In this document: positions 8,833-59,766 of the stretch, in pieces
Layout: each line of letters starts with the position of its first letter
Position numbering within the stretch: position 1 is the first letter of the stretch
Source of the DNA: Nanobdellota archaeon
GTDB taxonomy: Archaea; EX4484-52; LFW-46
DNA: 64,000 nt
NCBI GenBank assembly: GCA_018897155.1
Contig: JAHILE010000029.1
Coordinates: forward strand, 117 to 64,116
Reading direction: 5' to 3'
Position numbers and translations under genes: made by a program
The notes under the pieces: generated by a model
Database searches by the model: none
Seen by the model: the letters and a program-made list of their open reading frames with translations, nothing else
Told to the model about the DNA's origin: nothing

Positions 8833-9918
8833 TTATAGCCATTTTCTCTTTCGAAAGTATGCCAGCATGGAAATTGTTATTGCAATCATTACAACCCAAA
8901 CCGCAGCATAGCCCCAATACCAGTTGAGTTCAGGCATATTGAATGGCGATGCGCCTGTGTTGAAATTCATCCCATAAACGCCTACAATGAATGTCAGCGG
9001 GATGAATATCGTCGCAATTATTGTGAGGATTTTCATAACTTCGTTCATCTTGTTGCTCATGGTTGAAAGGTATAGATCTATCATGCCGGAAAGCATGTCG
9101 CGGTAAGTTTCCACAGTATCGATTATGCGCACAGTATGATCGTAAAGGTCTCTCAAATAAATTCTTGTGGACGCGCTTATCAAGCGCGATTCACCTCTCA
9201 GAAGAATGCCGACCATATCCCTCAGCGGCCAGACTGACTTGCGCATAAAAAGCATTTCCCTTTTCAGCCGATGAATGTTATATAATGTTTCATGCTTTGG
9301 CTCTTTCATGAGCCGTTCTTCAAACACCTCGGTTTCATCACCCATCTTTTCCAATACTATAAAATAGTTATCAATAACGGCATCCATAAGGCTGTATGCC
9401 AGATAATCCGCCCCTGCTTTTCTTATATGCCCCGTTCCCGCACGAATCCGTTCGCGAAGCGAATCAAAAACATCCCCTTCCAGACCTTCCTGAAATGATA
9501 TGACAAAATTCTTTCCCAATATGATGCTGACCTGCTCAGAAGTTATCTTTTTTTCAGAATCGGTATACGACAGCATATTAAGCACAATGAAAATATGGCT
9601 GTCAAAGATCTCTGCTTTTGGCCGCTGCATTGCGCTCATTATATCTTCAAGAATTGTTGGGTGTATCTTGTAATGCTTGCCTATGGACTCGACGATATCC
9701 GGCCGGTGAATGCCGTCTATATTTATCCAGGTGATTGTGGTCTTCTCTTTGTACTTGAAGCAATCTTCTACATTTCTTACTTCCCTTTCCTGGAACTTTT
9801 TTTCATTGTAATAGAATACGGTGATTTTTACAGGAGCGTTGCTTTTGTCTCCAAGATATATGAGACTTCCCGGCATAAGGCCTGCTTTTTTTGACATTTT
9901 TTTTAGGATGCGCGACAA
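8833..9918 (-). CDS. corA: CorA-family Mg2+/Co2+ transporter (second paralog)
   Basis: GMN motif (VGVYGMNFNTGASP), two C-terminal TM helices, 361 aa. Confidence 0.85.
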   Translation of the reverse strand: MSRILKKMSKKAGLMPGSLIYLGDKSNAPVKITVFYYNEKKFQEREVRNVEDCFKYKEKTTITWINIDGIHRPDIVESIGKHYKIHPTILEDIMSAMQRPKAEIFDSHIFIVLNMLSYTDSEKKITSEQVSIILGKNFVISFQEGLEGDVFDSLRERIRAGTGHIRKAGADYLAYSLMDAVIDNYFIVLEKMGDETEVFEERLMKEPKHETLYNIHRLKREMLFMRKSVWPLRDMVGILLRGESRLISASTRIYLRDLYDHTVRIIDTVETYRDMLSGMIDLYLSTMSNKMNEVMKILTIIATIFIPLTFIVGVYGMNFNTGASPFNMPELNWYWGYAAVWVVMIAITISMLAYFRKRKWL

Positions 9919-9993
9919 ACAAACACCATAAATACTTGCTGATAGTTATTTTGTGTTCTGAGTATATATAATTCGAACGTTCCGCGGATGATT

Positions 9994-11196
9994 TTATTTC
10001 GATGCGTGTATAATTTCAACAACATCTCGGTGCTTAAGTTCTGCATCCCCTGCTATGCGCTTTTTTGTCCTGACATCGATTGCGTAAAGAAAGTGCTTTC
10101 CAAAATCAGTATGAAGCGCGTATGCGAAGTCGCGCGCATTCGCTCCCGGCGGAAGAAGAAAGCAGTCCGGCAAAACATTGCCTTTACTATCTGTTAGCTT
10201 GTTTACACCCCCCGGAAAAATCGCGATGTATTTCAGGAAATCAAACACTGCGGCGTCAAGAACATTCTGCACACCGGTCGTTCCCCATTTTTTTAGGAAC
10301 TTCGACATCATCTCAAGCCCTACTTTCTGCTTGTCGTTCAGCGCATCCGGCGTAAGAATCTTAAAGTCATCATTTCCGGGCACATAATCTATCATGCCTT
10401 TGCGCGCAGCTTCCCTTAGCGCAAGCTCCATCTCTGACGAGCACGGAACAAAAAGAATGTCCGGGAACTCTTTTTTAAGCGACTCAATGTTTTTTTCTGC
10501 TGTTGAAATATCCATTTTGTTTGCGGCAACAAGTATTTTTTTTGTGTCGCGCCGAATATGTCTTGCAAGAGCCTTTCGATGTTCCGGAGTCCAAGCCTCC
10601 GGGTTTGCCGGAAGAGCGAGAGCTACAATGCCTTCGGTTATTGTTTTGTCAGTTACTTTGAAGCTTGAAAGCAATTCTGATAACTGCCCCTCAATATTTT
10701 TTTTCTGCATGTTTGCCGCGCGCGATATCTTAAACCAGTGGCGTTCAATGATTGAGGCATACCACAAGTCTATTTCATCCTCAAGGAATTTTACATCTAT
10801 TGCAGGATTGTGTGTTCCAGCAACTACATTTTCGCCTTTTTCATTTGTCGAGCCGGAGGCATCGATTACATGTATCAGGACATCAGCATTTGAGAGGTCG
10901 CTCAAGAACTGGTTGCCGAGGCCTTTTCCCTCATGCGCGCCAGGAACAAGCCCTGCCACATCAATCATTTCAACAGGCACAAATCGCATGTGGTCTTTGC
11001 ACATACCGAATCGCGGGTTGCATTGCACGCCAAAATCTTTGTCCGCGCATGCGACTCTCACATAGCCGGTGCCAAAATTCGGCTTTATTGTTGTAAATGG
11101 ATATGCCGCTATTGCAATATCCGCAAGCGTTGCCGCTTTAAAGAATGTCGATTTTCCTGCCGATGGTTTTCCTACAAGGCCTATGGTAAAACTCAT
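9994..11196 (-). CDS. Obg-like ATPase/GTPase, YchF/OLA1 family with C-terminal TGS-like domain
   Basis: G1 P-loop GLVGKPSAGKST, DVAGLVPGAHEGKGLGNQFL G3 region, ~400 aa typical of archaeal YchF homologs. Confidence 0.8.
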   Translation of the reverse strand: MSFTIGLVGKPSAGKSTFFKAATLADIAIAAYPFTTIKPNFGTGYVRVACADKDFGVQCNPRFGMCKDHMRFVPVEMIDVAGLVPGAHEGKGLGNQFLSDLSNADVLIHVIDASGSTNEKGENVVAGTHNPAIDVKFLEDEIDLWYASIIERHWFKISRAANMQKKNIEGQLSELLSSFKVTDKTITEGIVALALPANPEAWTPEHRKALARHIRRDTKKILVAANKMDISTAEKNIESLKKEFPDILFVPCSSEMELALREAARKGMIDYVPGNDDFKILTPDALNDKQKVGLEMMSKFLKKWGTTGVQNVLDAAVFDFLKYIAIFPGGVNKLTDSKGNVLPDCFLLPPGANARDFAYALHTDFGKHFLYAIDVRTKKRIAGDAELKHRDVVEIIHASK

Positions 11197-11276
11197 GATT
11201 ATCTGTAATTAAGTGTCTGGGAAATTATAAAAAGCAATATAGGAAAATTTGCATCCGTCAAATTAATTAATCTGCG

Positions 11277-12104
11277 TTGTTAATTGCTTTTATGGCTGAC
11301 GAAAATTCCAAAGCTGCTGCAGAAGATGCTGCTAATGCGGTCGGCAGAAAACCGGAAAGTCCGCGAGTCAGGCCGGTTTATTTTGTAATTGCTGTCGTTG
11401 TTTTTGGATTAGTAATTGGTATGATTTCTATCGGGGAAAAATCCGATATGCCCACAGGTAAAGTTCTTGAGCCTGTTGCGCCGAGCATTTTCCCTGAACA
11501 GATTGCTGAATTTAATACTGTCGTCGCAGAATGCAACCAATATATTGCAGAAAGGGACAACAATAATACAATAGATTGTTTGAGGAAGGCAGATGCGATT
11601 AAAACCGACCTGAAAGTTGTTTCTGCGCTTGCAGATCTTTATTATTTTACAGGGAATGATGGCGAGGCAATAGCATATTATTCGCGCGCAATAGAAATTG
11701 AGCCCAGTGATACGCGACTGAGGTATAATTACGCGCTTTCTCTTGAGCGAATGAACCGGACTGAAGATGCTCTTGCGCAATACGCAAAAGCCGCTGGCTT
11801 GGAGTCTAATTACACTGCTGCGATTAACAACCGGGGCATTCTTTTGCAGAAGCTCAAAAGATTCAATGAATCAAAGCAGGAATTTGAGAACGCGCTTGCG
11901 ATTGAGCCTAACAACACCATAATTCTTGTTAACTATGCGAACGTGCTTGCTGAAATGAATTTTAAAACAGAGGCTGAGCAGAAGTACCGAAAGGCCATTC
12001 AGCTAAGCCCTAATAATACGGGAATTTATAAAAATTTCGGGCAGTTTCTTTTCATGAACGGCAGATATGCCGAGGCAAAGGATATGTTTGATAAATCGGT
12101 TTGA
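11277..12104 (+). CDS. TPR-repeat protein with N-terminal transmembrane anchor
   Basis: N-terminal hydrophobic helix (VYFVIAVVVFGLVIGMISI) followed by several 34-aa TPR-like repeats (AIAYYSRAIEIEPSD, ALAQYAKAAGLESN, NALAIEPNN, KYRKAIQLSPNN). Confidence 0.7.
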   Translation: MLIAFMADENSKAAAEDAANAVGRKPESPRVRPVYFVIAVVVFGLVIGMISIGEKSDMPTGKVLEPVAPSIFPEQIAEFNTVVAECNQYIAERDNNNTIDCLRKADAIKTDLKVVSALADLYYFTGNDGEAIAYYSRAIEIEPSDTRLRYNYALSLERMNRTEDALAQYAKAAGLESNYTAAINNRGILLQKLKRFNESKQEFENALAIEPNNTIILVNYANVLAEMNFKTEAEQKYRKAIQLSPNNTGIYKNFGQFLFMNGRYAEAKDMFDKSV

Positions 12105-19801: not shown

Positions 19802-22309
19802 ATGACCGTTTCTAATGGTTTGGACAAAAATGCAGAGCCTCCATCGCCTCAAAAATATCGGCTCGGCATATTGCTGTGCGTAAAAAACGGCATTTTTGAA
19901 CCAGGGGTTATAGCAAACGTTTTACAGCTGGGGCCGCATTATACGGCAAATCTGATGCTTAGATATCAGGGATTACTTTCTAAAGACGGGGGATTAAAAA
20001 CAGACGGCATAAGTGTGCTTGAAACTCTAGAAAAAGAGTATGCTGAGCAAACTCATTTTTACAGAAAAAGAATGGCGGGGTTGTCTGAAAATGGCGAAAT
20101 AAGCAAGAATGTGCTTGCGACAAAAGAACCATATAATTCAACAGGGCGCGATACGTTTACACCATCAAATCCTAAAGCTAATGATCCGAATATGGCTGCA
20201 ACTATTGACAAACAGGCAATTCAAGAAGAATTATTCGGAAGCCAATACATGAAAGATGAAAAAGAAAAAACGATGAGATGTTTTGATCGTAAGGATTACC
20301 ATAAAGCCCGTTTATTATATCAGGTGAACCAAGGAAATAATAACAATGCCGAGATAGCAAAAATTTTGGGAATTTCTACACCTTATGTTTATCTTCTTTT
20401 GGCAGAACTTGAAAGAGATTCATTGTTTGTTGGCACTCGAAAATCGAAAAAGCTTAATGAAAAAGGCGCTGCAACACTTTCGCGCCTGACAGAAAAATAT
20501 GGCGCCTTAGACGATTCTCAAAAAGACGCACCACATACGGAATATAAACAAATAAAAGAATTGATAAAAAAACCATCAGAACCCGATACACGTCTTTCTC
20601 AAAACCTCGTGCAGAATCAAGTAAAAGAAGAAATTAAGCCGGCGAAAGTTGATACTAAAATCAGCGATATTATCGGCGTTAATGATGGGCTGCCTGCAAA
20701 TGAACTTTCCGATGAGCCCGAATATGTTAGAAATGATCTGCTTGTTCTTAAGCTTTTGATGGGGGTCGAAAGCGGGCTTAAAGCAGATGAATTATTGGAT
20801 TTATTATCCGATGATGGCGGTTTGTATACTCTTGAGTCGCGGCTTAGGAAAGAGAAGCTATTTTCAAAAAAACTTGATGTTTATAGGCTAGAGGGTTCCG
20901 GCCGCAAAAAGTTGGATTCTTTGAAACAGGAATGCAGCACAGTAGTTCCTGAATATGCGGATATTATCGATTATCTGCGCGTAAACAAAATGATGCCGCC
21001 ACAAAAAAAGAATGCATATATCACTGCTCCGGCCGGAAACGCCCCAATAGCAAAAGACGAAAAATTACAGGAGATTTCTAAATCAGAGCATGAAAAGCCG
21101 AAGTATGAAAAGGAAGAAACGCCTTATGTTTCAAAGGAAACTGTTGTTGAAGCTTCAATCGAAAAAAATCCTATTGAAGTAATACTTGCTGAAAGCACGC
21201 CGCCGGAAAAAGCCCCACAAAAAGAACAAAGACCTCATTTACTTTATCCGGATAAAGAACTATTCGATAAATTACATACTGAAGAAACTGCGCAATTAAA
21301 CGTTGATAGCGTTCCTTCAGATAAAAAGATTGCAGAAATAATTGAATCTCATAAATTTATTGATGTTGAAGAATCTTCGGCTGAAATAACATATAGTTTA
21401 AACCAGGGTTATGTAAGGATTACTGACGGTATGGCTGGCTTTAATCTGCTGAAAATCAATAATTCATATAATTCAAACCCAAATCCCTCTGATTACGGAA
21501 TGAGGGTCAAACTTAGCCCGGAACTCGTGCTTCTTGAACTTGTGAAGCGCACTAAATCGACAAAAAAAGATTTGATGCATTATGCCGACACATACAATAA
21601 AAGAGATTGGGTAAATAGTACCCGTGTTTTGAAGAATGGGGTATTAATAAAAGAATCCGAAGGTATGTTAACGCTTACCGAAAATGCTATGAAATTGCTT
21701 GATGATGCAGAATACTGGCTATCGATATACTTACGCGGAGAAGACGAGCATTGCACACGCCGTTTTGATGAAGACGAGTCGTGTCTTCCAGCATTTATTA
21801 GAGGTGTGGGGAAGGTGTCATTGCATTCGCCATCTTCGACAGTTCTTAACAAGATTAAAGAGTATTGTGCAATTCCAAAAATAGGAGAGAAAGAAGAGCA
21901 GCCTGAACGAACGGCTTTTGTTAAGCCTGAGCCAGTTGTTGTTTACGAGGAGCTGCCAAAAATAAAACCTGTAGTTGCCGAATCAACAATTTCAACAATT
22001 AAAAAGAACGGAGATTCTTTAAAAGATACCGGAATATATGTAAAAGGTCATAGGTATGTCGTTTTTCTTGGCGGCAGAGGGCAAAGAACAATTGTTGCGC
22101 GTAATCGTTTTCAAGATATCGGAAAAAAGTATCTAAACGCACTTAAGACAGAGGGATTAATTGACAATAATCTTGATGAAACATATTTGGATTTAAAAGA
22201 TTTGGGCTGGATTACAGATAATAACGTAGACAAAGTAAAAACGGATAAGGGACAGGCAGCAGAAAGAATATTGGAACAGCTTATGAGTTCATCCAATGTT
22301 GTGGCATAA
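19802..22309 (+). CDS. large hypothetical protein (835 aa) with several predicted winged-helix/HTH-like segments
   Basis: Long ORF with coding-like composition; HTH-like stretches (NNAEIAKILGISTPYVYLLLAELER); no catalytic motif recognised. Confidence 0.55.
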   Translation: MTVSNGLDKNAEPPSPQKYRLGILLCVKNGIFEPGVIANVLQLGPHYTANLMLRYQGLLSKDGGLKTDGISVLETLEKEYAEQTHFYRKRMAGLSENGEISKNVLATKEPYNSTGRDTFTPSNPKANDPNMAATIDKQAIQEELFGSQYMKDEKEKTMRCFDRKDYHKARLLYQVNQGNNNNAEIAKILGISTPYVYLLLAELERDSLFVGTRKSKKLNEKGAATLSRLTEKYGALDDSQKDAPHTEYKQIKELIKKPSEPDTRLSQNLVQNQVKEEIKPAKVDTKISDIIGVNDGLPANELSDEPEYVRNDLLVLKLLMGVESGLKADELLDLLSDDGGLYTLESRLRKEKLFSKKLDVYRLEGSGRKKLDSLKQECSTVVPEYADIIDYLRVNKMMPPQKKNAYITAPAGNAPIAKDEKLQEISKSEHEKPKYEKEETPYVSKETVVEASIEKNPIEVILAESTPPEKAPQKEQRPHLLYPDKELFDKLHTEETAQLNVDSVPSDKKIAEIIESHKFIDVEESSAEITYSLNQGYVRITDGMAGFNLLKINNSYNSNPNPSDYGMRVKLSPELVLLELVKRTKSTKKDLMHYADTYNKRDWVNSTRVLKNGVLIKESEGMLTLTENAMKLLDDAEYWLSIYLRGEDEHCTRRFDEDESCLPAFIRGVGKVSLHSPSSTVLNKIKEYCAIPKIGEKEEQPERTAFVKPEPVVVYEELPKIKPVVAESTISTIKKNGDSLKDTGIYVKGHRYVVFLGGRGQRTIVARNRFQDIGKKYLNALKTEGLIDNNLDETYLDLKDLGWITDNNVDKVKTDKGQAAERILEQLMSSSNVVA

Positions 22310-22598: not shown

Positions 22599-22926
22599 TT
22601 TTAATCACTTTCTTCACCGAAAAATGAAATCCTTTCACAAGCTTCGCTTGTTTTGGGATTTAATGTTCCCAAAAGCTTGAAAAGCCATAGGCTTTTCAGG
22701 ACTCTAGGCTTTTCGGCATTCCCGAAAAAGCTTCAAGTTCGCAGCAGCGAACGAGATGATTTTCATAATTATCAGTTTTCTATCATTGTGAGTATAGATT
22801 TAAATAGATTAAAAACCGCACAATTCTGTATTTTCGGCATGCGTCGAAAAATACATGCCCTAATCACAAAGATTCATAAATGCATTGCAGCACTTTTTAT
22901 ATATCTTCGCGCAACTAAGTTAACAT

Positions 22927-23751
22927 ATGGTCTTTATCACAAAGCATGATGGAAGGCGCGAGGAATTCAATCCCGATAAGGTGCGCCAGAGCTGCATCCG
23001 TTCGGGCGCGTCGGAGGCGCTTACTAAAGAAGTCCTCGAATATATCACAAAACGAATCTACAACGGCATGTCGACAAAAATCCTTATGAAGCTGGTCTAT
23101 GACCGGCTGAACCGCGAGGAAGTGCATATCGCGCGCAGATACCGCTTAAAAGAAGCCATAGCAGATCTTGGTCCGGAAGGATATGAGTTTGAGTGGTATA
23201 TCACACATTTGCTTAAGTGTTCCGGATACAAGACAATTCACAGCCCGGAGCCGAAGATTCAGGGCAAGCTTGTCGATCATGAGATTGATGTTTTTGCAGA
23301 AAAGGAAGGCGAACGGGCGATAATTGAATGTAAGCACCACTTCCAGTCGCACACCTATACAGGCCTTGAAGTGCCGTTGATTCAGTGGGCGCGCTTTGAT
23401 GATATAAATAATAACGGCCTGAAAATGACATCTGCATGGATTATAACAAACACGAAATTTTCGGAGTATGCTATAAGATATTCAAAAGGAAAGGGCATAA
23501 AGCTCATCGGATGGAATTATCCTTTTGGGAGTGGCCTTGAGCGGCTTATTGAAGATTATCGGGCATATCCTTTGACACTGCTAAAGCTTCCGAGATTTTT
23601 GCGCATCAATCTTACAGAAAGAGGCATAACAAATATACCTGACTTTTTGAAGGCCGACACAAGGGCGCTCGGGGATGCAGGGCTAACAAACGAAAAAATC
23701 GCAGAATTAAAAGAGCTTTCAAACAAACTGGTAAATCATGGAAATCAATGA
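22927..23751 (+). CDS. ATP-cone domain fused to Mrr-type restriction endonuclease-like (PD-(D/E)xK) domain
   Basis: N-terminal ATP-cone (FITKHDGRREEFNPDKVRQSCIRSG), then Mrr_cat-like core (DHEIDVFAEKEGERAIIECKHH...WIITNTKFSEYAIRYSKGKGIKLIG). Confidence 0.75.
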   Translation: MVFITKHDGRREEFNPDKVRQSCIRSGASEALTKEVLEYITKRIYNGMSTKILMKLVYDRLNREEVHIARRYRLKEAIADLGPEGYEFEWYITHLLKCSGYKTIHSPEPKIQGKLVDHEIDVFAEKEGERAIIECKHHFQSHTYTGLEVPLIQWARFDDINNNGLKMTSAWIITNTKFSEYAIRYSKGKGIKLIGWNYPFGSGLERLIEDYRAYPLTLLKLPRFLRINLTERGITNIPDFLKADTRALGDAGLTNEKIAELKELSNKLVNHGNQ

Positions 23752-23770: not shown

Positions 23771-24463
23771 ATGGGGATTGAAATGAACAATACTTCACAG
23801 AAGAACCGCAATAAAAATAAAATTTTTGTAATTTTTGTAGCGCTCATCTTTTTGGGCTCAATGGCTGGAGCAATGCTGTATTCAACAGGAGATACAAAAA
23901 AGGCCGCTGATCTTCCTGCTTCAAAGATAGTTTCGGGATTGTCTGATGATCAAAAGCAGAGGATATTATTCGGTTCGCAAGAGAATCCTGCAGACCGTTA
24001 TGTGTTAATTACGCTTAATGTTCCAAAGATATGCGATCCAGAATGCAATGGCATAAAACAACTGATGGGACAGGTGCTTTCCGCATATGATCCTGCGATT
24101 TATCTTTCAGAAGTTCAATCAGAATCTGCTTCTAATTTAGGTGTTAGCGTACGGATGGAATCGTATCTGGATAAAAAAGAGCTTTCGGAATTTAATCTGA
24201 CTGGTGTGGAAGACTTTATTTGCAGCAATACAATATATCGGATAGATGAGTGTGTGTTAAGAAAAATGGATTTTGGTGCTTCTAATGAAAACAAAACAGA
24301 AATCAAGGAAATCAAAGGAACTGCAGGAGGAGAAAATTCAAGCGCAATCAATATCACAGCCTCAAATGCATCAAACAGTACCGGACAAGGAAATGTTTCG
24401 GACAGCGCAGTTTCAAACATCACCGAGCAGCGAAATATATCAAACAGCACAGGAACTCAATAA
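23771..24463 (+). CDS. secreted/membrane-anchored protein with N-glycosylation-sequon-rich C-terminus
   Basis: N-terminal TM/signal helix (IFVIFVALIFLGSMAGAMLYS), C-terminal Asn/Ser-rich tail with many N-x-S/T sequons (NSSAINITASNASNSTGQGNVSDSAVSNITEQRNISNST). Confidence 0.55.
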   Translation: MGIEMNNTSQKNRNKNKIFVIFVALIFLGSMAGAMLYSTGDTKKAADLPASKIVSGLSDDQKQRILFGSQENPADRYVLITLNVPKICDPECNGIKQLMGQVLSAYDPAIYLSEVQSESASNLGVSVRMESYLDKKELSEFNLTGVEDFICSNTIYRIDECVLRKMDFGASNENKTEIKEIKGTAGGENSSAINITASNASNSTGQGNVSDSAVSNITEQRNISNSTGTQ

Positions 24464-24521
24464 GCCTGTTGAATCAAGCGAACGCGCGAAATCAGTAAAA
24501 CCCGAAGCATTACCGCTAGTT

Positions 24522-25049
24522 ATGAGCTCATATGGCCTTATTAGTACAGGCGATTTCAAAAAGGCTTTACTTGTTCTCGAACAGGCGCTTGAAATTGCAC
24601 CGAATGACTTGAGGGCGCTTTTGCTTAAAGTCCAAATTCTTCTGTTATTAAGAAAACTGCGCGATGCAGACAAAACCACGAGCCTCATAATGGAATTATA
24701 TCCTGGCGATCACCACGTATATCTTGCAAAGGCAATATCAACGCTTTTTTATACGACTAATATGGCTGAATCCCTAAAATACATCAACAAAGGGCTTGAG
24801 ATAAGATCAGATTGCATTGAGCTCGTTTTGGCAAAGGCACAAATACTTTACCTGATGAAGGACCCCACATACAATGCATGGGTGCTGCAGGCTTCAGAGA
24901 TAGACGCATCAAGGACAGATACATTTCTTAAAAAATACTGGATTGAGCACTTTCCGGAACCGCCATCGCATACCGGAGCAGAGATTCATGGCCTCTTGCA
25001 GACGTTGATGTTTCTTGCAAGCCAGCAGAGTTTTGGCGGATGGAAATGA
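24522..25049 (+). CDS. TPR-like repeat protein
   Basis: ORF track gives 24273..25049 overlapping the upstream gene in another frame; first ATG after the upstream stop is 24522; TPR-like helices (ALLVLEQALEIAPNDLRALLLKVQIL). Confidence 0.5.
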   Translation: MSSYGLISTGDFKKALLVLEQALEIAPNDLRALLLKVQILLLLRKLRDADKTTSLIMELYPGDHHVYLAKAISTLFYTTNMAESLKYINKGLEIRSDCIELVLAKAQILYLMKDPTYNAWVLQASEIDASRTDTFLKKYWIEHFPEPPSHTGAEIHGLLQTLMFLASQQSFGGWK

Positions 25050-26121: not shown

Positions 26122-26862
26122 TCAAGGAATCGGAACCCAAACAGGTTGTATTGAAGGATTTTCTTCAAGATGCGTTTCTTGTGCAAATTTGTAAATATCT
26201 TTTATTGGAAAGTTGGTATATTCTTCAATTAATAAATCCATTTCCTCAAGACCTATTTTTCCTAAGTATTTTTCTTTTAATTCTTTTTCTGCGCGAGCAT
26301 ATTCTTCAGGCAGATTCTTTCTTCCATTAATTTTGTTTGATAAGAATTTTCTAGTTTGCCATAATGCATTAGCAGGTATATAAAAAAGGTCAATAACGGG
26401 TATTGAAGGCCCTACCGGCATTATTCTATAATGCTCTTCGCGGGCGTAAATCACTCTTTTAATTCCAAGTTTATCGTTCGTCCTATCCATTGCAATAGGA
26501 CTATAACAACCCATTATTGAAAGTTCTTCAATCGTTTCTTCAAGTTCTTTTGATTTTGGACCCCAAATACACGGTTGATTAAACGGTATGTACACATTTT
26601 CTTTTTTAGGTATTTCTTTATCAATTAAAAATGCTATTTGTTGGTAATCCGGAGGATAAAACTCGATAGGTTTTTTTGATTTTCCAACAAGATGCAATAC
26701 GAAGTCTCTTAAATATTTCTCATTATCGGTTGTACGTCTCATAATAATCCTCAAAAATAAATTGTTTTTTGGAATTATTAAATATCCAACGCACTTACTT
26801 GCGCCAAAAATCCTTTCGCTTCGCTCTAGGCTTTTTAGCACAAATTTATTCCGGCGCGGCAA
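26122..26862 (-). CDS. hypothetical protein
   Basis: 246-aa ORF; real start probably at an internal Met (MRRTTDNEKYL); no recognised domain. Confidence 0.5.
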   Translation of the reverse strand: MPRRNKFVLKSLERSERIFGASKCVGYLIIPKNNLFLRIIMRRTTDNEKYLRDFVLHLVGKSKKPIEFYPPDYQQIAFLIDKEIPKKENVYIPFNQPCIWGPKSKELEETIEELSIMGCYSPIAMDRTNDKLGIKRVIYAREEHYRIMPVGPSIPVIDLFYIPANALWQTRKFLSNKINGRKNLPEEYARAEKELKEKYLGKIGLEEMDLLIEEYTNFPIKDIYKFAQETHLEENPSIQPVWVPIP

Positions 26863-26904
26863 TTTGTGATAAAAATCCTTTCGCTTCGCTCTAGGCTTTT
26901 TAGC
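26806..26904. repeat. tandem pair of identical 34-nt repeats separated by a 31-nt palindromic spacer; member of a dispersed intergenic repeat family
   Basis: AAAAATCCTTTCGCTTCGCTCTAGGCTTTTTAGC at 26806-26839 and 26871-26904; spacer ACAAATT...AATTTGT; diverged copies near 22660-22760, 35225-35295, 55262-55350, 59689-59730. Confidence 0.85.
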
Positions 26905-34437: not shown

Positions 34438-34554
34438 AGGTCCGTGGTCTAGTCATGCGATTGCATAGCAATTTTCCTTATGCTCCGTATGAGAAATTGG
34501 TATGACGCCGCACTCACACTGCGGAGATCCTGAGTTCAATCCTCAGCGGACCTA
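34438..34554 (+). tRNA. tRNA-Val(CAC) with a ~44-nt non-canonical intron in the D-loop
   Basis: Perfect 7-bp acceptor stem AGGTCCG/CGGACCT, T8, anticodon arm CCGCA-CTCACAC-TGCGG, T-arm CTGAG-TTCAATC-CTCAG, followed by T-run; D-arm is interrupted between AGT and TGGTA. Confidence 0.8.
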
Positions 34555-55250: not shown

Positions 55251-55475
55251 TCATCTCAACATGCATTGGATTGAAATCCTTTCGCAAGCTTTGCTTGCTC
55301 TAGGCTTTTTCAATATCCTCGAAAAAAGCTTGAAAGCGCTATCAAGCTTTCAAGATTTTTAGCCATTTTGAACTATTCACAAAGTTCATTGGGTTCGAAA
55401 GCATGAAAATTCACAAGAATCTTCAAGATTTATCAATTTATTTGGGCTAAAATCAACTTCCTGATAATGAATAAT

Positions 55476-59064: not shown

Positions 59065-59222
59065 TGGGTCAAGCCAGATTTGAACTGGCGACCTCCGCCT
59101 TTCATAAACTGCAAAGTGCTGGACTGCTGATAAATGACCATGCCGAAGGCATGGTCGCTCTAAGCGCCAGCCGATTATGCGGCTGTGTAAGGGCGGCGTC
59201 ATAACCACTAGACTATTGACCC
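59065..59222 (-). tRNA. tRNA-Val(UAC) with ~85-nt intron at the canonical 37/38 position
   Basis: Acceptor GGGTCAA/TTGACCC, D-arm GTCT-AGTGGTTA-TGAC, anticodon stem CCGCC...GGCGG with loop CTTACA interrupted by intron; T-arm GCCAG-TTCAAAT-CTGGC; intron contains perfect hairpin GACCATGCC-TTCG-GCATGGTC. Confidence 0.8.
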
Positions 59223-59629: not shown

Positions 59630-59766
59630 TTTAAGGAGGATATTTTTATCTTGAAAATTCTTGCGAATTTTCAAGCTTTTTAATACAAAGAAAATCCTTT
59701 CGCTTTGCTCAAGGCTTTTTAGCCCAAAGTGAATGGCGAATAGTTAAAAATGGGGAGTGATTAAAA

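Follow-up and report, generated by a model that had tools for sequence, protein, structure and literature searches.

A protein that joins an NrdR-type ATP-cone to a PD-(D/E)xK nuclease in archaea and bacteria, with a possible role in regulated nucleic-acid breakdown

The gene at nt 22927–23751 (+ strand) of a 64-kb stretch of DNA from a Nanobdellota archaeon (contig JAHILE010000029.1; we refer to the whole stretch as the window) encodes a protein of three modules: an ATP-cone, a PD-(D/E)xK nuclease and a (helix-hairpin-helix)2-like, or (HhH)2-like, domain. We use X as the working name of this 274-residue protein. The reading that we prefer, with a probability of roughly one half, is that X is a housekeeping nuclease gated by ATP or dATP in the style of NrdR, and that it controls nucleic-acid breakdown for salvage and catabolism or for repair. 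On this reading X serves neither restriction nor defence. The gene is complete, with an ATG start (open reading frame (ORF) list, Pfam), and it is the only member of its family in the window; its GC content, 44.6% compared with 40.6% for the window, is unremarkable. Using a 27-sequence alignment, AlphaFold predicts the fold of X with a pLDDT of 94 and a pTM of 0.88.

An earlier note on this DNA, made from its letters, had placed the ORF exactly and had proposed the fusion of an ATP-cone to an Mrr-type nuclease domain. The fusion is genuine, since Pfam finds both domains, PF03477 and PF04471, above their gathering scores. The two motifs that had been quoted are also confirmed: VDHEIDVF holds H118, E119 and D121, and IIECKHH holds E134, K136 and H138. 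The C-terminal ~170 residues had been said to carry a PD-(D/E)xK core; this part divides into a nuclease of ~110 residues (84–195) and a (HhH)2-like domain of ~75 residues (196–270). The combination of ATP-cone and Mrr_cat is already visible in database annotations of family members; NCBIfam has no equivalog for X, and a search of the open-access literature found no paper on an ATP-cone/nuclease fusion, its distribution or its function.

The N-terminal module, residues 3–82 (nt 22933–23172, +), is an ATP-cone of the NrdR type according to Pfam, Foldseek, hhalign and conservation in the family. The Pfam match to PF03477 covers residues 3–74 with 33.8 bits against a cut-off of 25.8. The model of this domain has the β-hairpin lid and four-helix bundle of an ATP-cone, and in Foldseek it superposes on the cones of Escherichia coli NrdR with a root-mean-square deviation (rmsd) of 1.6–2.0 Å over 81 residues, the cones of ribonucleotide reductase (RNR) ranking after those of NrdR. 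Searching the PDB with the cone alone by phmmer gave no meaningful match, and a profile with hhalign was required; the cone profile then matches E. coli NrdR with a probability of 94%. In this alignment K6, K18, R25, T50 and Y72 of X pair with K53, K65, R72, S105 and Y131 of NrdR. The last four of these NrdR residues contact phosphate or act as ATP/dATP 'gatekeepers', and K53, the partner of K6, is the only aligned residue that is not named as nucleotide-contacting in the same study (bioRxiv 10.1101/2025.03.28.645925). Conservation was read from an alignment of 315 full-length members collected in three database searches: K6 is kept in 100%, G9 and K18 in 99%, and T50 and Y72 in 97% of them, and the position of R25 holds R or K in 81%. 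Because the cone retains the nucleotide-contact residues of NrdR, we may reasonably infer that ATP or dATP gates the predicted nuclease.

The second module, residues 84–195 (nt 23176–23511, +), is a PD-(D/E)xK core of the Mrr_cat type, identified by Pfam PF04471, by PDB entry 1Y88 and by conservation; the Pfam match spans residues 84–194 with 32 bits against a cut-off of 21. X contains the full E...D...ExK catalytic motif, formed by E89 (nt 23191–23193), D121 (nt 23287–23289), E134 (nt 23326–23328) and K136 (nt 23332–23334), all on the + strand. Homologues without the catalytic D/E/K residues, which the earlier note had named as a finding that would speak against it, are not what the family presents: each of the four residues is conserved in ~100% of the 315 members, and H118, E119, R156, D159 and N175 are conserved in at least 98% of this diverse set. 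The connector between cone and nuclease, RYxLKxAIxxLGPxGYxFE (residues 71–89, nt 23137–23193, +; drawn from alignments and the secondary structure of the model), is itself highly conserved. In the model the last helix of the cone runs through this connector directly into the helix that bears the invariant E89, and the connector would be an obvious route for allosteric coupling.

The invariance of the catalytic residues also bears on the possibility that X is an NrdR-like, nucleotide-responsive DNA-binding regulator, in which the nuclease fold and the HhH domain serve for DNA binding only. The cone is most similar to the cones of NrdR, and one member is listed at JGI under the name 'transcriptional regulator NrdR family protein/Holliday junction resolvase-like'. 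However, conservation of four catalytic residues at ~100% is unexpected for a non-catalytic scaffold. X also lacks the zinc ribbon, and against the NrdR model TIGR00244 it scores 14 bits where the cut-off is 125. Nor is there linkage to an RNR gene, none being seen in the window or in any of the loci examined. We therefore regard a purely regulatory X as very improbable.

The third module, residues 196–270 (nt 23512–23736, +), is a helical domain of the AF1548-like, (HhH)2/RAD51-N-like type, as indicated by a profile, by PF22357 and by a model of the domain, and it is presumed to be a DNA-binding module. Residues 84–268 of X are homologous to AF1548 of Archaeoglobus fulgidus (PDB 1Y88), with E = 3.5e-32 and 37% identity in phmmer and E = 5e-60 in a profile comparison, and the C-terminal two-thirds of the AlphaFold model match 1Y88 with a TM-score of 0.88 in Foldseek. 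The nuclease half was in this form crystallised in 2004, and the Global Ocean Sampling paper (PMC1821046) had AF1548 as a predicted endonuclease of the restriction type, with D38, E51 and K53. A profile of the last 79 residues finds 1Y88 first (8.5e-20) and the N-terminal HhH domain of RAD51 next (0.004). Of 21 aligned homologues, 15 match PF22357 (AF1548-like_C), whereas the window protein gives no match to it at E ≤ 1; the same scan of the homologues' C-terminal domains also gave weak matches to HHH_5, HhH-GPD and RAD51D_N. Modelled separately, the domain resembles NusA AR2 and the N-terminal domains of RAD51/RadA (TM-score ~0.6, rmsd ~2 Å). We also note that the 1Y88 chain begins just past the position of the invariant F88-E89, and that its tag residues align to this motif (in comparison with X residues 84–92). 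The true start of AF1548 may lie upstream of the annotated one, and the native gene may encode a cone or, at a minimum, the catalytic Glu.

Put together, these modules suggest a simple mechanism. X would be a cytoplasmic, metal-dependent endonuclease of the PD-(D/E)xK type, which the (HhH)2-like C-terminal domain would hold on nucleic acid, most likely DNA, and which the N-terminal NrdR-type cone would control allosterically. By analogy with NrdR and RNR, binding of ATP and/or dATP to the cone would change its conformation and probably also the oligomeric state, and the rigid, conserved connector would relay this change to the E89 helix, such that cleavage is turned on or off. In the cell, X would then act as the regulated entry step of nucleic-acid breakdown, a housekeeping function: its products would be passed to exonucleases (beta-CASP or Cas4-like) and from there to nucleotide salvage or catabolism by enzymes of the AMP/thymidine-phosphorylase family, ribose-1,5-bisphosphate (R15P) isomerase and phosphoribosyl pyrophosphate (PRPP) synthase. 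In bacteria of the Candidate Phyla Radiation (CPR) it may act in DNA repair too. Such a mechanism and role would tie cutting to the adenylate/dATP status of the cell. The analysis shows the domain architecture, the predicted fold, the conserved residues, the phyletic spread and the gene neighbourhoods; what X binds, which way binding regulates it, whether it cuts DNA or RNA and what it does in the cell are inferred.

The family is large. An exhaustive profile search of 1.84 billion representatives gave 645 clusters (50% identity) at E ≤ 1e-30, and nearly all of the top 150 clusters are 265–300 residues long with full-length coverage. A search seeded with one bacterial member gave 5189 clusters (90% identity) at E ≤ 1e-20; their named sources are Patescibacteria, Parcubacteria, Paceibacterota and Taylorbacteria, and their product names include 'restriction endonuclease', 'ATP cone domain-containing protein' and 'ATPase'. 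Further members come from Aenigmarchaeota and other archaea, Chlorobi, Flavobacteriia (Sediminicola, Maribacter, Sinomicrobium), Chitinophagales, Pontibacter and Criblamydia. The family is thus mostly one of Patescibacteria/CPR, with members also in DPANN-type archaea, Bacteroidota and Chlamydiota, and it looks vertically inherited and syntenic. Scanning metagenomic contigs with a single protein yielded only six distant loci.

To describe the neighbourhood of X we surveyed 80 metagenomic loci plus others, which reduced to 77 non-redundant loci, and clustered the neighbouring genes. Three kinds of gene recur as operon partners: those for further nucleases (beta-CASP, Cas4-like), those for enzymes of nucleotide catabolism (AMP/thymidine-phosphorylase family, PRPP synthase, R15P isomerase) and those for DNA repair (uracil-DNA glycosylase (UDG), MGMT-like). 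The clade of Bacteroidota and Chlamydiota has a beta-CASP metallo-hydrolase immediately downstream of X in eight loci. Specifically, the RefSeq records of Criblamydia sequanensis and Pontibacter actiniarum show the order X, MBL/beta-CASP, thymidine-phosphorylase family, ribose-phosphate pyrophosphokinase, with genes that overlap or nearly abut; the X copies of Flavobacteriia are flanked by genes for universal stress proteins (Usp). For two divergent archaea, one of them an Aenigmarchaeota, a gene of the AMP-phosphorylase type ends 5–6 nt before X, and in the Aenigmarchaeota locus an IF-2B/R15P-isomerase gene precedes X as well. AMP phosphorylase and R15P isomerase belong to the archaeal AMP pathway, which is widely reported to serve ribose and nucleotide salvage in CPR and DPANN (10.1101/386292; PMC9563170). 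Single cases include a QRPTase-family gene overlapping X (L022) and a DHH/DHHA1 phosphoesterase after X (L039). Conserved placement in a nucleotide-metabolism operon, which the earlier note had held to count against its proposal, therefore does occur in several lineages (Criblamydia/Pontibacter and the two archaea) but not in the window's own.

The partners in the CPR are of another kind. In Patescibacteria the gene order is yceG, mnmA, X, a Cas4-like PDDEXK_1 gene, at some loci an MGMT-like gene, and UDG, with alaS further on. Of the 21 non-redundant CPR loci with enough downstream sequence, 17 have PDDEXK_1 and/or UDG on the strand of X and no more than 2.5 kb downstream of it, and in 11 the gene directly adjoins X; an MGMT-like gene is additionally present in six loci of the data set. 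This tight operon argues for X as a dedicated DNA-repair endonuclease that takes part in base-excision repair, in alternative excision repair or in the processing of recombination intermediates; its cone would license incision only when dNTPs or ATP are available for resynthesis. The presence of UDG near X in the archaeal locus L022 points the same way, as does the C-terminal domain, which is of the HhH type found in many repair enzymes and has weak RAD51-N and HhH-GPD-like matches; some sources also label members 'Holliday junction resolvase-like'. However, the partners of X in lineages other than the CPR belong to catabolism (thymidine-phosphorylase family, Prs, Usp, and beta-CASP with its domain for RNA specificity). 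Within the CPR, mnmA, alaS and peptidases are part of the gene order as well, so that it may be plain synteny, and no repair partner adjoins X in the window. Repair as the dedicated function of X seems to us rather unlikely. Repair in the CPR is nevertheless a close rival of the breakdown and salvage role, one that is compatible with it and does not exclude it, and the same operon of UDG, MGMT-like and Cas4-like genes lends some support to the DNA-damage response that the earlier note had mentioned. A separate observation concerns alaS. Many Patescibacteria have it a few genes past X on the downstream side (for example L038 7897–9726, L096 9303–end, L097 8583–10307), and so does one low-GC archaeon (L001, alaS at 9333–12014), where the genes run cysS, X, membrane protein, alaS. 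Either coincidence or a trace of block transfer may explain this.

The earlier note had seen in the fusion an attractive logic for antiviral defence. X would then work against viruses, or in the manner of a type IV restriction enzyme: a phage would disturb the ATP/dATP pool, and X would sense the change and cut DNA in response. Restriction enzymes of the Mrr type and ZorD have an Mrr_cat domain in common with X, the arrangement of a sensor and a PD-(D/E)xK nuclease is formally like that of Can2/Card1 and Cap4, with weak Foldseek matches to Can2, and two members reside on plasmids. The PADLOC match of X to ZorD (E = 2.9e-7) covers the nuclease domain only, at profile positions 949–1052 of 1071, and the CARF_PDDEXK matches (E = 0.005–0.02) are sub-threshold and again confined to the nuclease region. 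Neither a helicase nor Zor partners are found near X; X carries no CARF/SAVED sensor, and no cyclase or CRISPR genes lie near it. There is likewise no match to Mrr_N in X by Pfam, its N-terminus being the ATP-cone instead, and no DNA methyltransferase partner was seen. Applied to 148 neighbours from 76 non-redundant loci, PADLOC found no coherent defence system: the QueC matches are MnmA genes, the Cas4 matches are solitary PDDEXK_1 genes, and the remainder are scattered singletons. Scans with archaeal and bacterial sub-alignments gave no family match in 2.9 million viral contigs, and tblastn gave none in 50,697 phage genomes. Only 2 of 72,556 plasmids carry a member, both within the metabolic operon of X, beta-CASP, thymidine-phosphorylase family and Prs. 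Whereas genes of the Mrr type are patchy and located in variable or defence regions, X is syntenic in relatives and its neighbours are housekeeping genes. We consider the antiviral explanation improbable. What survives of the earlier interpretation is the fusion with its invariant catalytic residues and its retained nucleotide-contact residues, and not the antiviral logic.

In the window itself, the gene content is archaeal (RpoL, the RFC small subunit, Hel308, aIF5A, ELP3 and diphthine synthase; also LeuRS), and among named sequences those most similar to its RFC small subunit are proteins of DPANN/Nanohaloarchaeota, at 58–66% identity. The gene order around X is shared with relatives at 78–86% identity: LeuRS, a large unknown protein, (arginase), rpoL on the opposite strand, X, a membrane protein, a tetratricopeptide-repeat (TPR) protein and an AstE-like gene. 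The gene that follows 19 nt past the X stop codon (nt 23771–24463, +) encodes a membrane-anchored four-cysteine protein, recognised by pairwise similarity to L007/L012 and in an alignment of six proteins, and it is probably co-transcribed with X. Its product has an N-terminal membrane anchor, the invariant cysteines C88, C92, C151 and C161 (CxxxC motif) and a tail rich in N-x-S/T, and has no match in Pfam. The adjacency of this gene to X is held throughout the archaeal sub-clade (L001 8864–9355, L012 1360–1950, L019 908–1501, L020 4613–5167) and persists at 39–46% identity of X, even where the other neighbours have changed.

Several observations weigh against X as a gated housekeeping nuclease that feeds breakdown and salvage. 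The position of the canonical Arg in the 'KRDG' motif of RNR is not conserved in the X family, although E. coli NrdR lacks it too. In the lineage of the window no nuclease or nucleotide-metabolism partner is adjacent, the sole conserved partner being the membrane-anchored four-cysteine protein, and no homologue of deoA, e2b2 or beta-CASP was found within the 64-kb window. The CPR partners (UDG, MGMT-like) point to repair while those of Bacteroidota and archaea point to catabolism, and because these associations diverge the family may have more than one role; the CPR gene order could moreover be simple lineage synteny. Because the beta-CASP partners carry the RNA-specificity domain RMMBL, the substrate could be RNA. 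Finally, a search of the open-access literature turned up no biochemical data on any member of the family.

A few features of the window stand apart from these questions. An ORF of 835 codons (nt 19802–22309, +) has a match to wHTH-PRTase_assc that falls below threshold (23.8 bits, cut-off 27); its counterparts in the syntenic relatives have 484 and 631 residues, and because these are so much shorter the protein is a fast-changing one. The TPR ORF (nt 24273–25049, +) has a TTG start and overlaps the preceding gene by ~190 nt. Because the product of its relatives has 173–191 residues, the true start is probably near 24470–24500. An 86%-identical relative (L009/L010/L011) has a nucleotidyltransferase/HEPN pair (MNT-HEPN, toxin-antitoxin-like) after the AstE-like gene, and at this position the window has an unannotated ORF of 246 codons on the opposite strand (nt 26122–26862). 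Two tRNA matches in Rfam were not reported by ARAGORN: one at nt 59065–59222 (−), a full-length match over 158 nt that probably contains an intron, and a marginal one at nt 34481–34554 (+) with 30.9 bits.

The intergenic region upstream of X measures 328 nt (nt 22599–22926) and folds far better than shuffled sequence (z = −5.55). The earlier note had described ~330 nt rich in hairpin-bearing repeats; the length and the strong folding are right, and there is just one repeat copy. The 154 nt nearest X (nt 22773–22926) are conserved with relatives and contain two TATA-like boxes, one for each of the divergent genes. The archaeal TATA-like box TTTTTATATATC (nt 22894–22905, +), in a block conserved in L007 and L009, presumably acts as a promoter, judging from general knowledge of archaeal promoters. 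Its centre lies ~27 nt ahead of the ATG, a spacing from which the mRNA of X is predicted to be leaderless or nearly so. The other part of the region (nt 22599–22772) is a hairpin-rich insertion of ~170 nt that adjoins the start of rpoL, has no counterpart in the syntenic relatives L007 and L009, and holds an expanded copy of a dispersed repeat of ~30 nt. This repeat has five copies in the window, all on the + strand (nt 22627–22714, 26808–26836, 26873–26901, 55274–55310 and 59692–59720), with the consensus AAATCCTTTCGC[AAGC]TT[CT]GCTCTAGGCTTTTT(AGC); in shuffled sequence no copies would be expected. It can form a small hairpin, AAAAATCC...GGCTTTTT, and Rfam has no match in or around the region upstream of X. 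Because the insertion lies directly upstream of the rpoL start, it would sit in the leader or promoter of rpoL and not in that of X. We considered the hairpin-rich DNA as a regulator of X and ruled it out as a lineage-specific insertion beside rpoL; nothing links the repeat or the insertion to the function of X.

To our knowledge, ATP-cones have been functionally studied only in ribonucleotide reductases and NrdR, and a nuclease under the control of an ATP-cone would bring this allosteric module to a new class of enzyme. Tentatively, we raise the further possibility that X is the first ATP-cone-regulated nuclease and acts as a 'gatekeeper' of energy or dATP charge, deciding when nucleic acid, be it imported, damaged or the cell's own, becomes nucleotides. 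If so, X would be the missing regulated entry step of salvage by the AMP-phosphorylase/pentose-bisphosphate route in CPR, DPANN and some Bacteroidota and Chlamydiota. Patescibacteria and DPANN archaea lack de novo nucleotide synthesis and presumably subsist on nucleic acids that they scavenge. The proposal bears on which nucleases feed this salvage and on how the cell's own genome is spared. X is small (274 residues), soluble and confidently modelled, and it has homologues in cultured Pontibacter, Sinomicrobium and Sediminicola, which makes it directly testable.

The design of X can be compared with several known systems. The structure-specific nucleases XPF, Mus81 and Hef also place a C-terminal (HhH)2 domain after a nuclease of the restriction-endonuclease fold, but their nuclease is of the ERCC4 family, they have no ATP-cone, and we detected no sequence similarity between them and X. 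Type IV restriction enzymes of the Mrr kind share the Pfam catalytic domain and the D...ExK core with X; unlike them, X has no Mrr_N winged-helix reader domain, lies outside variable regions and defence loci and looks vertically inherited. In Can2/Card1 of CRISPR type III and in Cap4 of CBASS, an N-terminal nucleotide-sensing domain controls a PD-(D/E)xK nuclease, as would be the case in X, and the similarity by fold or PADLOC is weak and limited to the nuclease part; the sensor of X is an ATP-cone rather than CARF or SAVED, and its presumed ligand is ATP or dATP rather than a second messenger. AF1548, solved by structural genomics, has both the nuclease domain and the C-terminal helical domain of X, but as crystallised it is without the ATP-cone. 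NrdR, in turn, has an ATP-cone of the same sub-type, with K65, R72, S105 and Y131 equivalents that are conserved in X, and it couples this nucleotide-sensing cone to a DNA-interacting module through ATP/dATP-dependent oligomerisation. NrdR begins with a zinc ribbon and lacks a catalytic domain, whereas X has its cone at the N-terminus, followed by what looks from its residues like an active nuclease and by an HhH domain.

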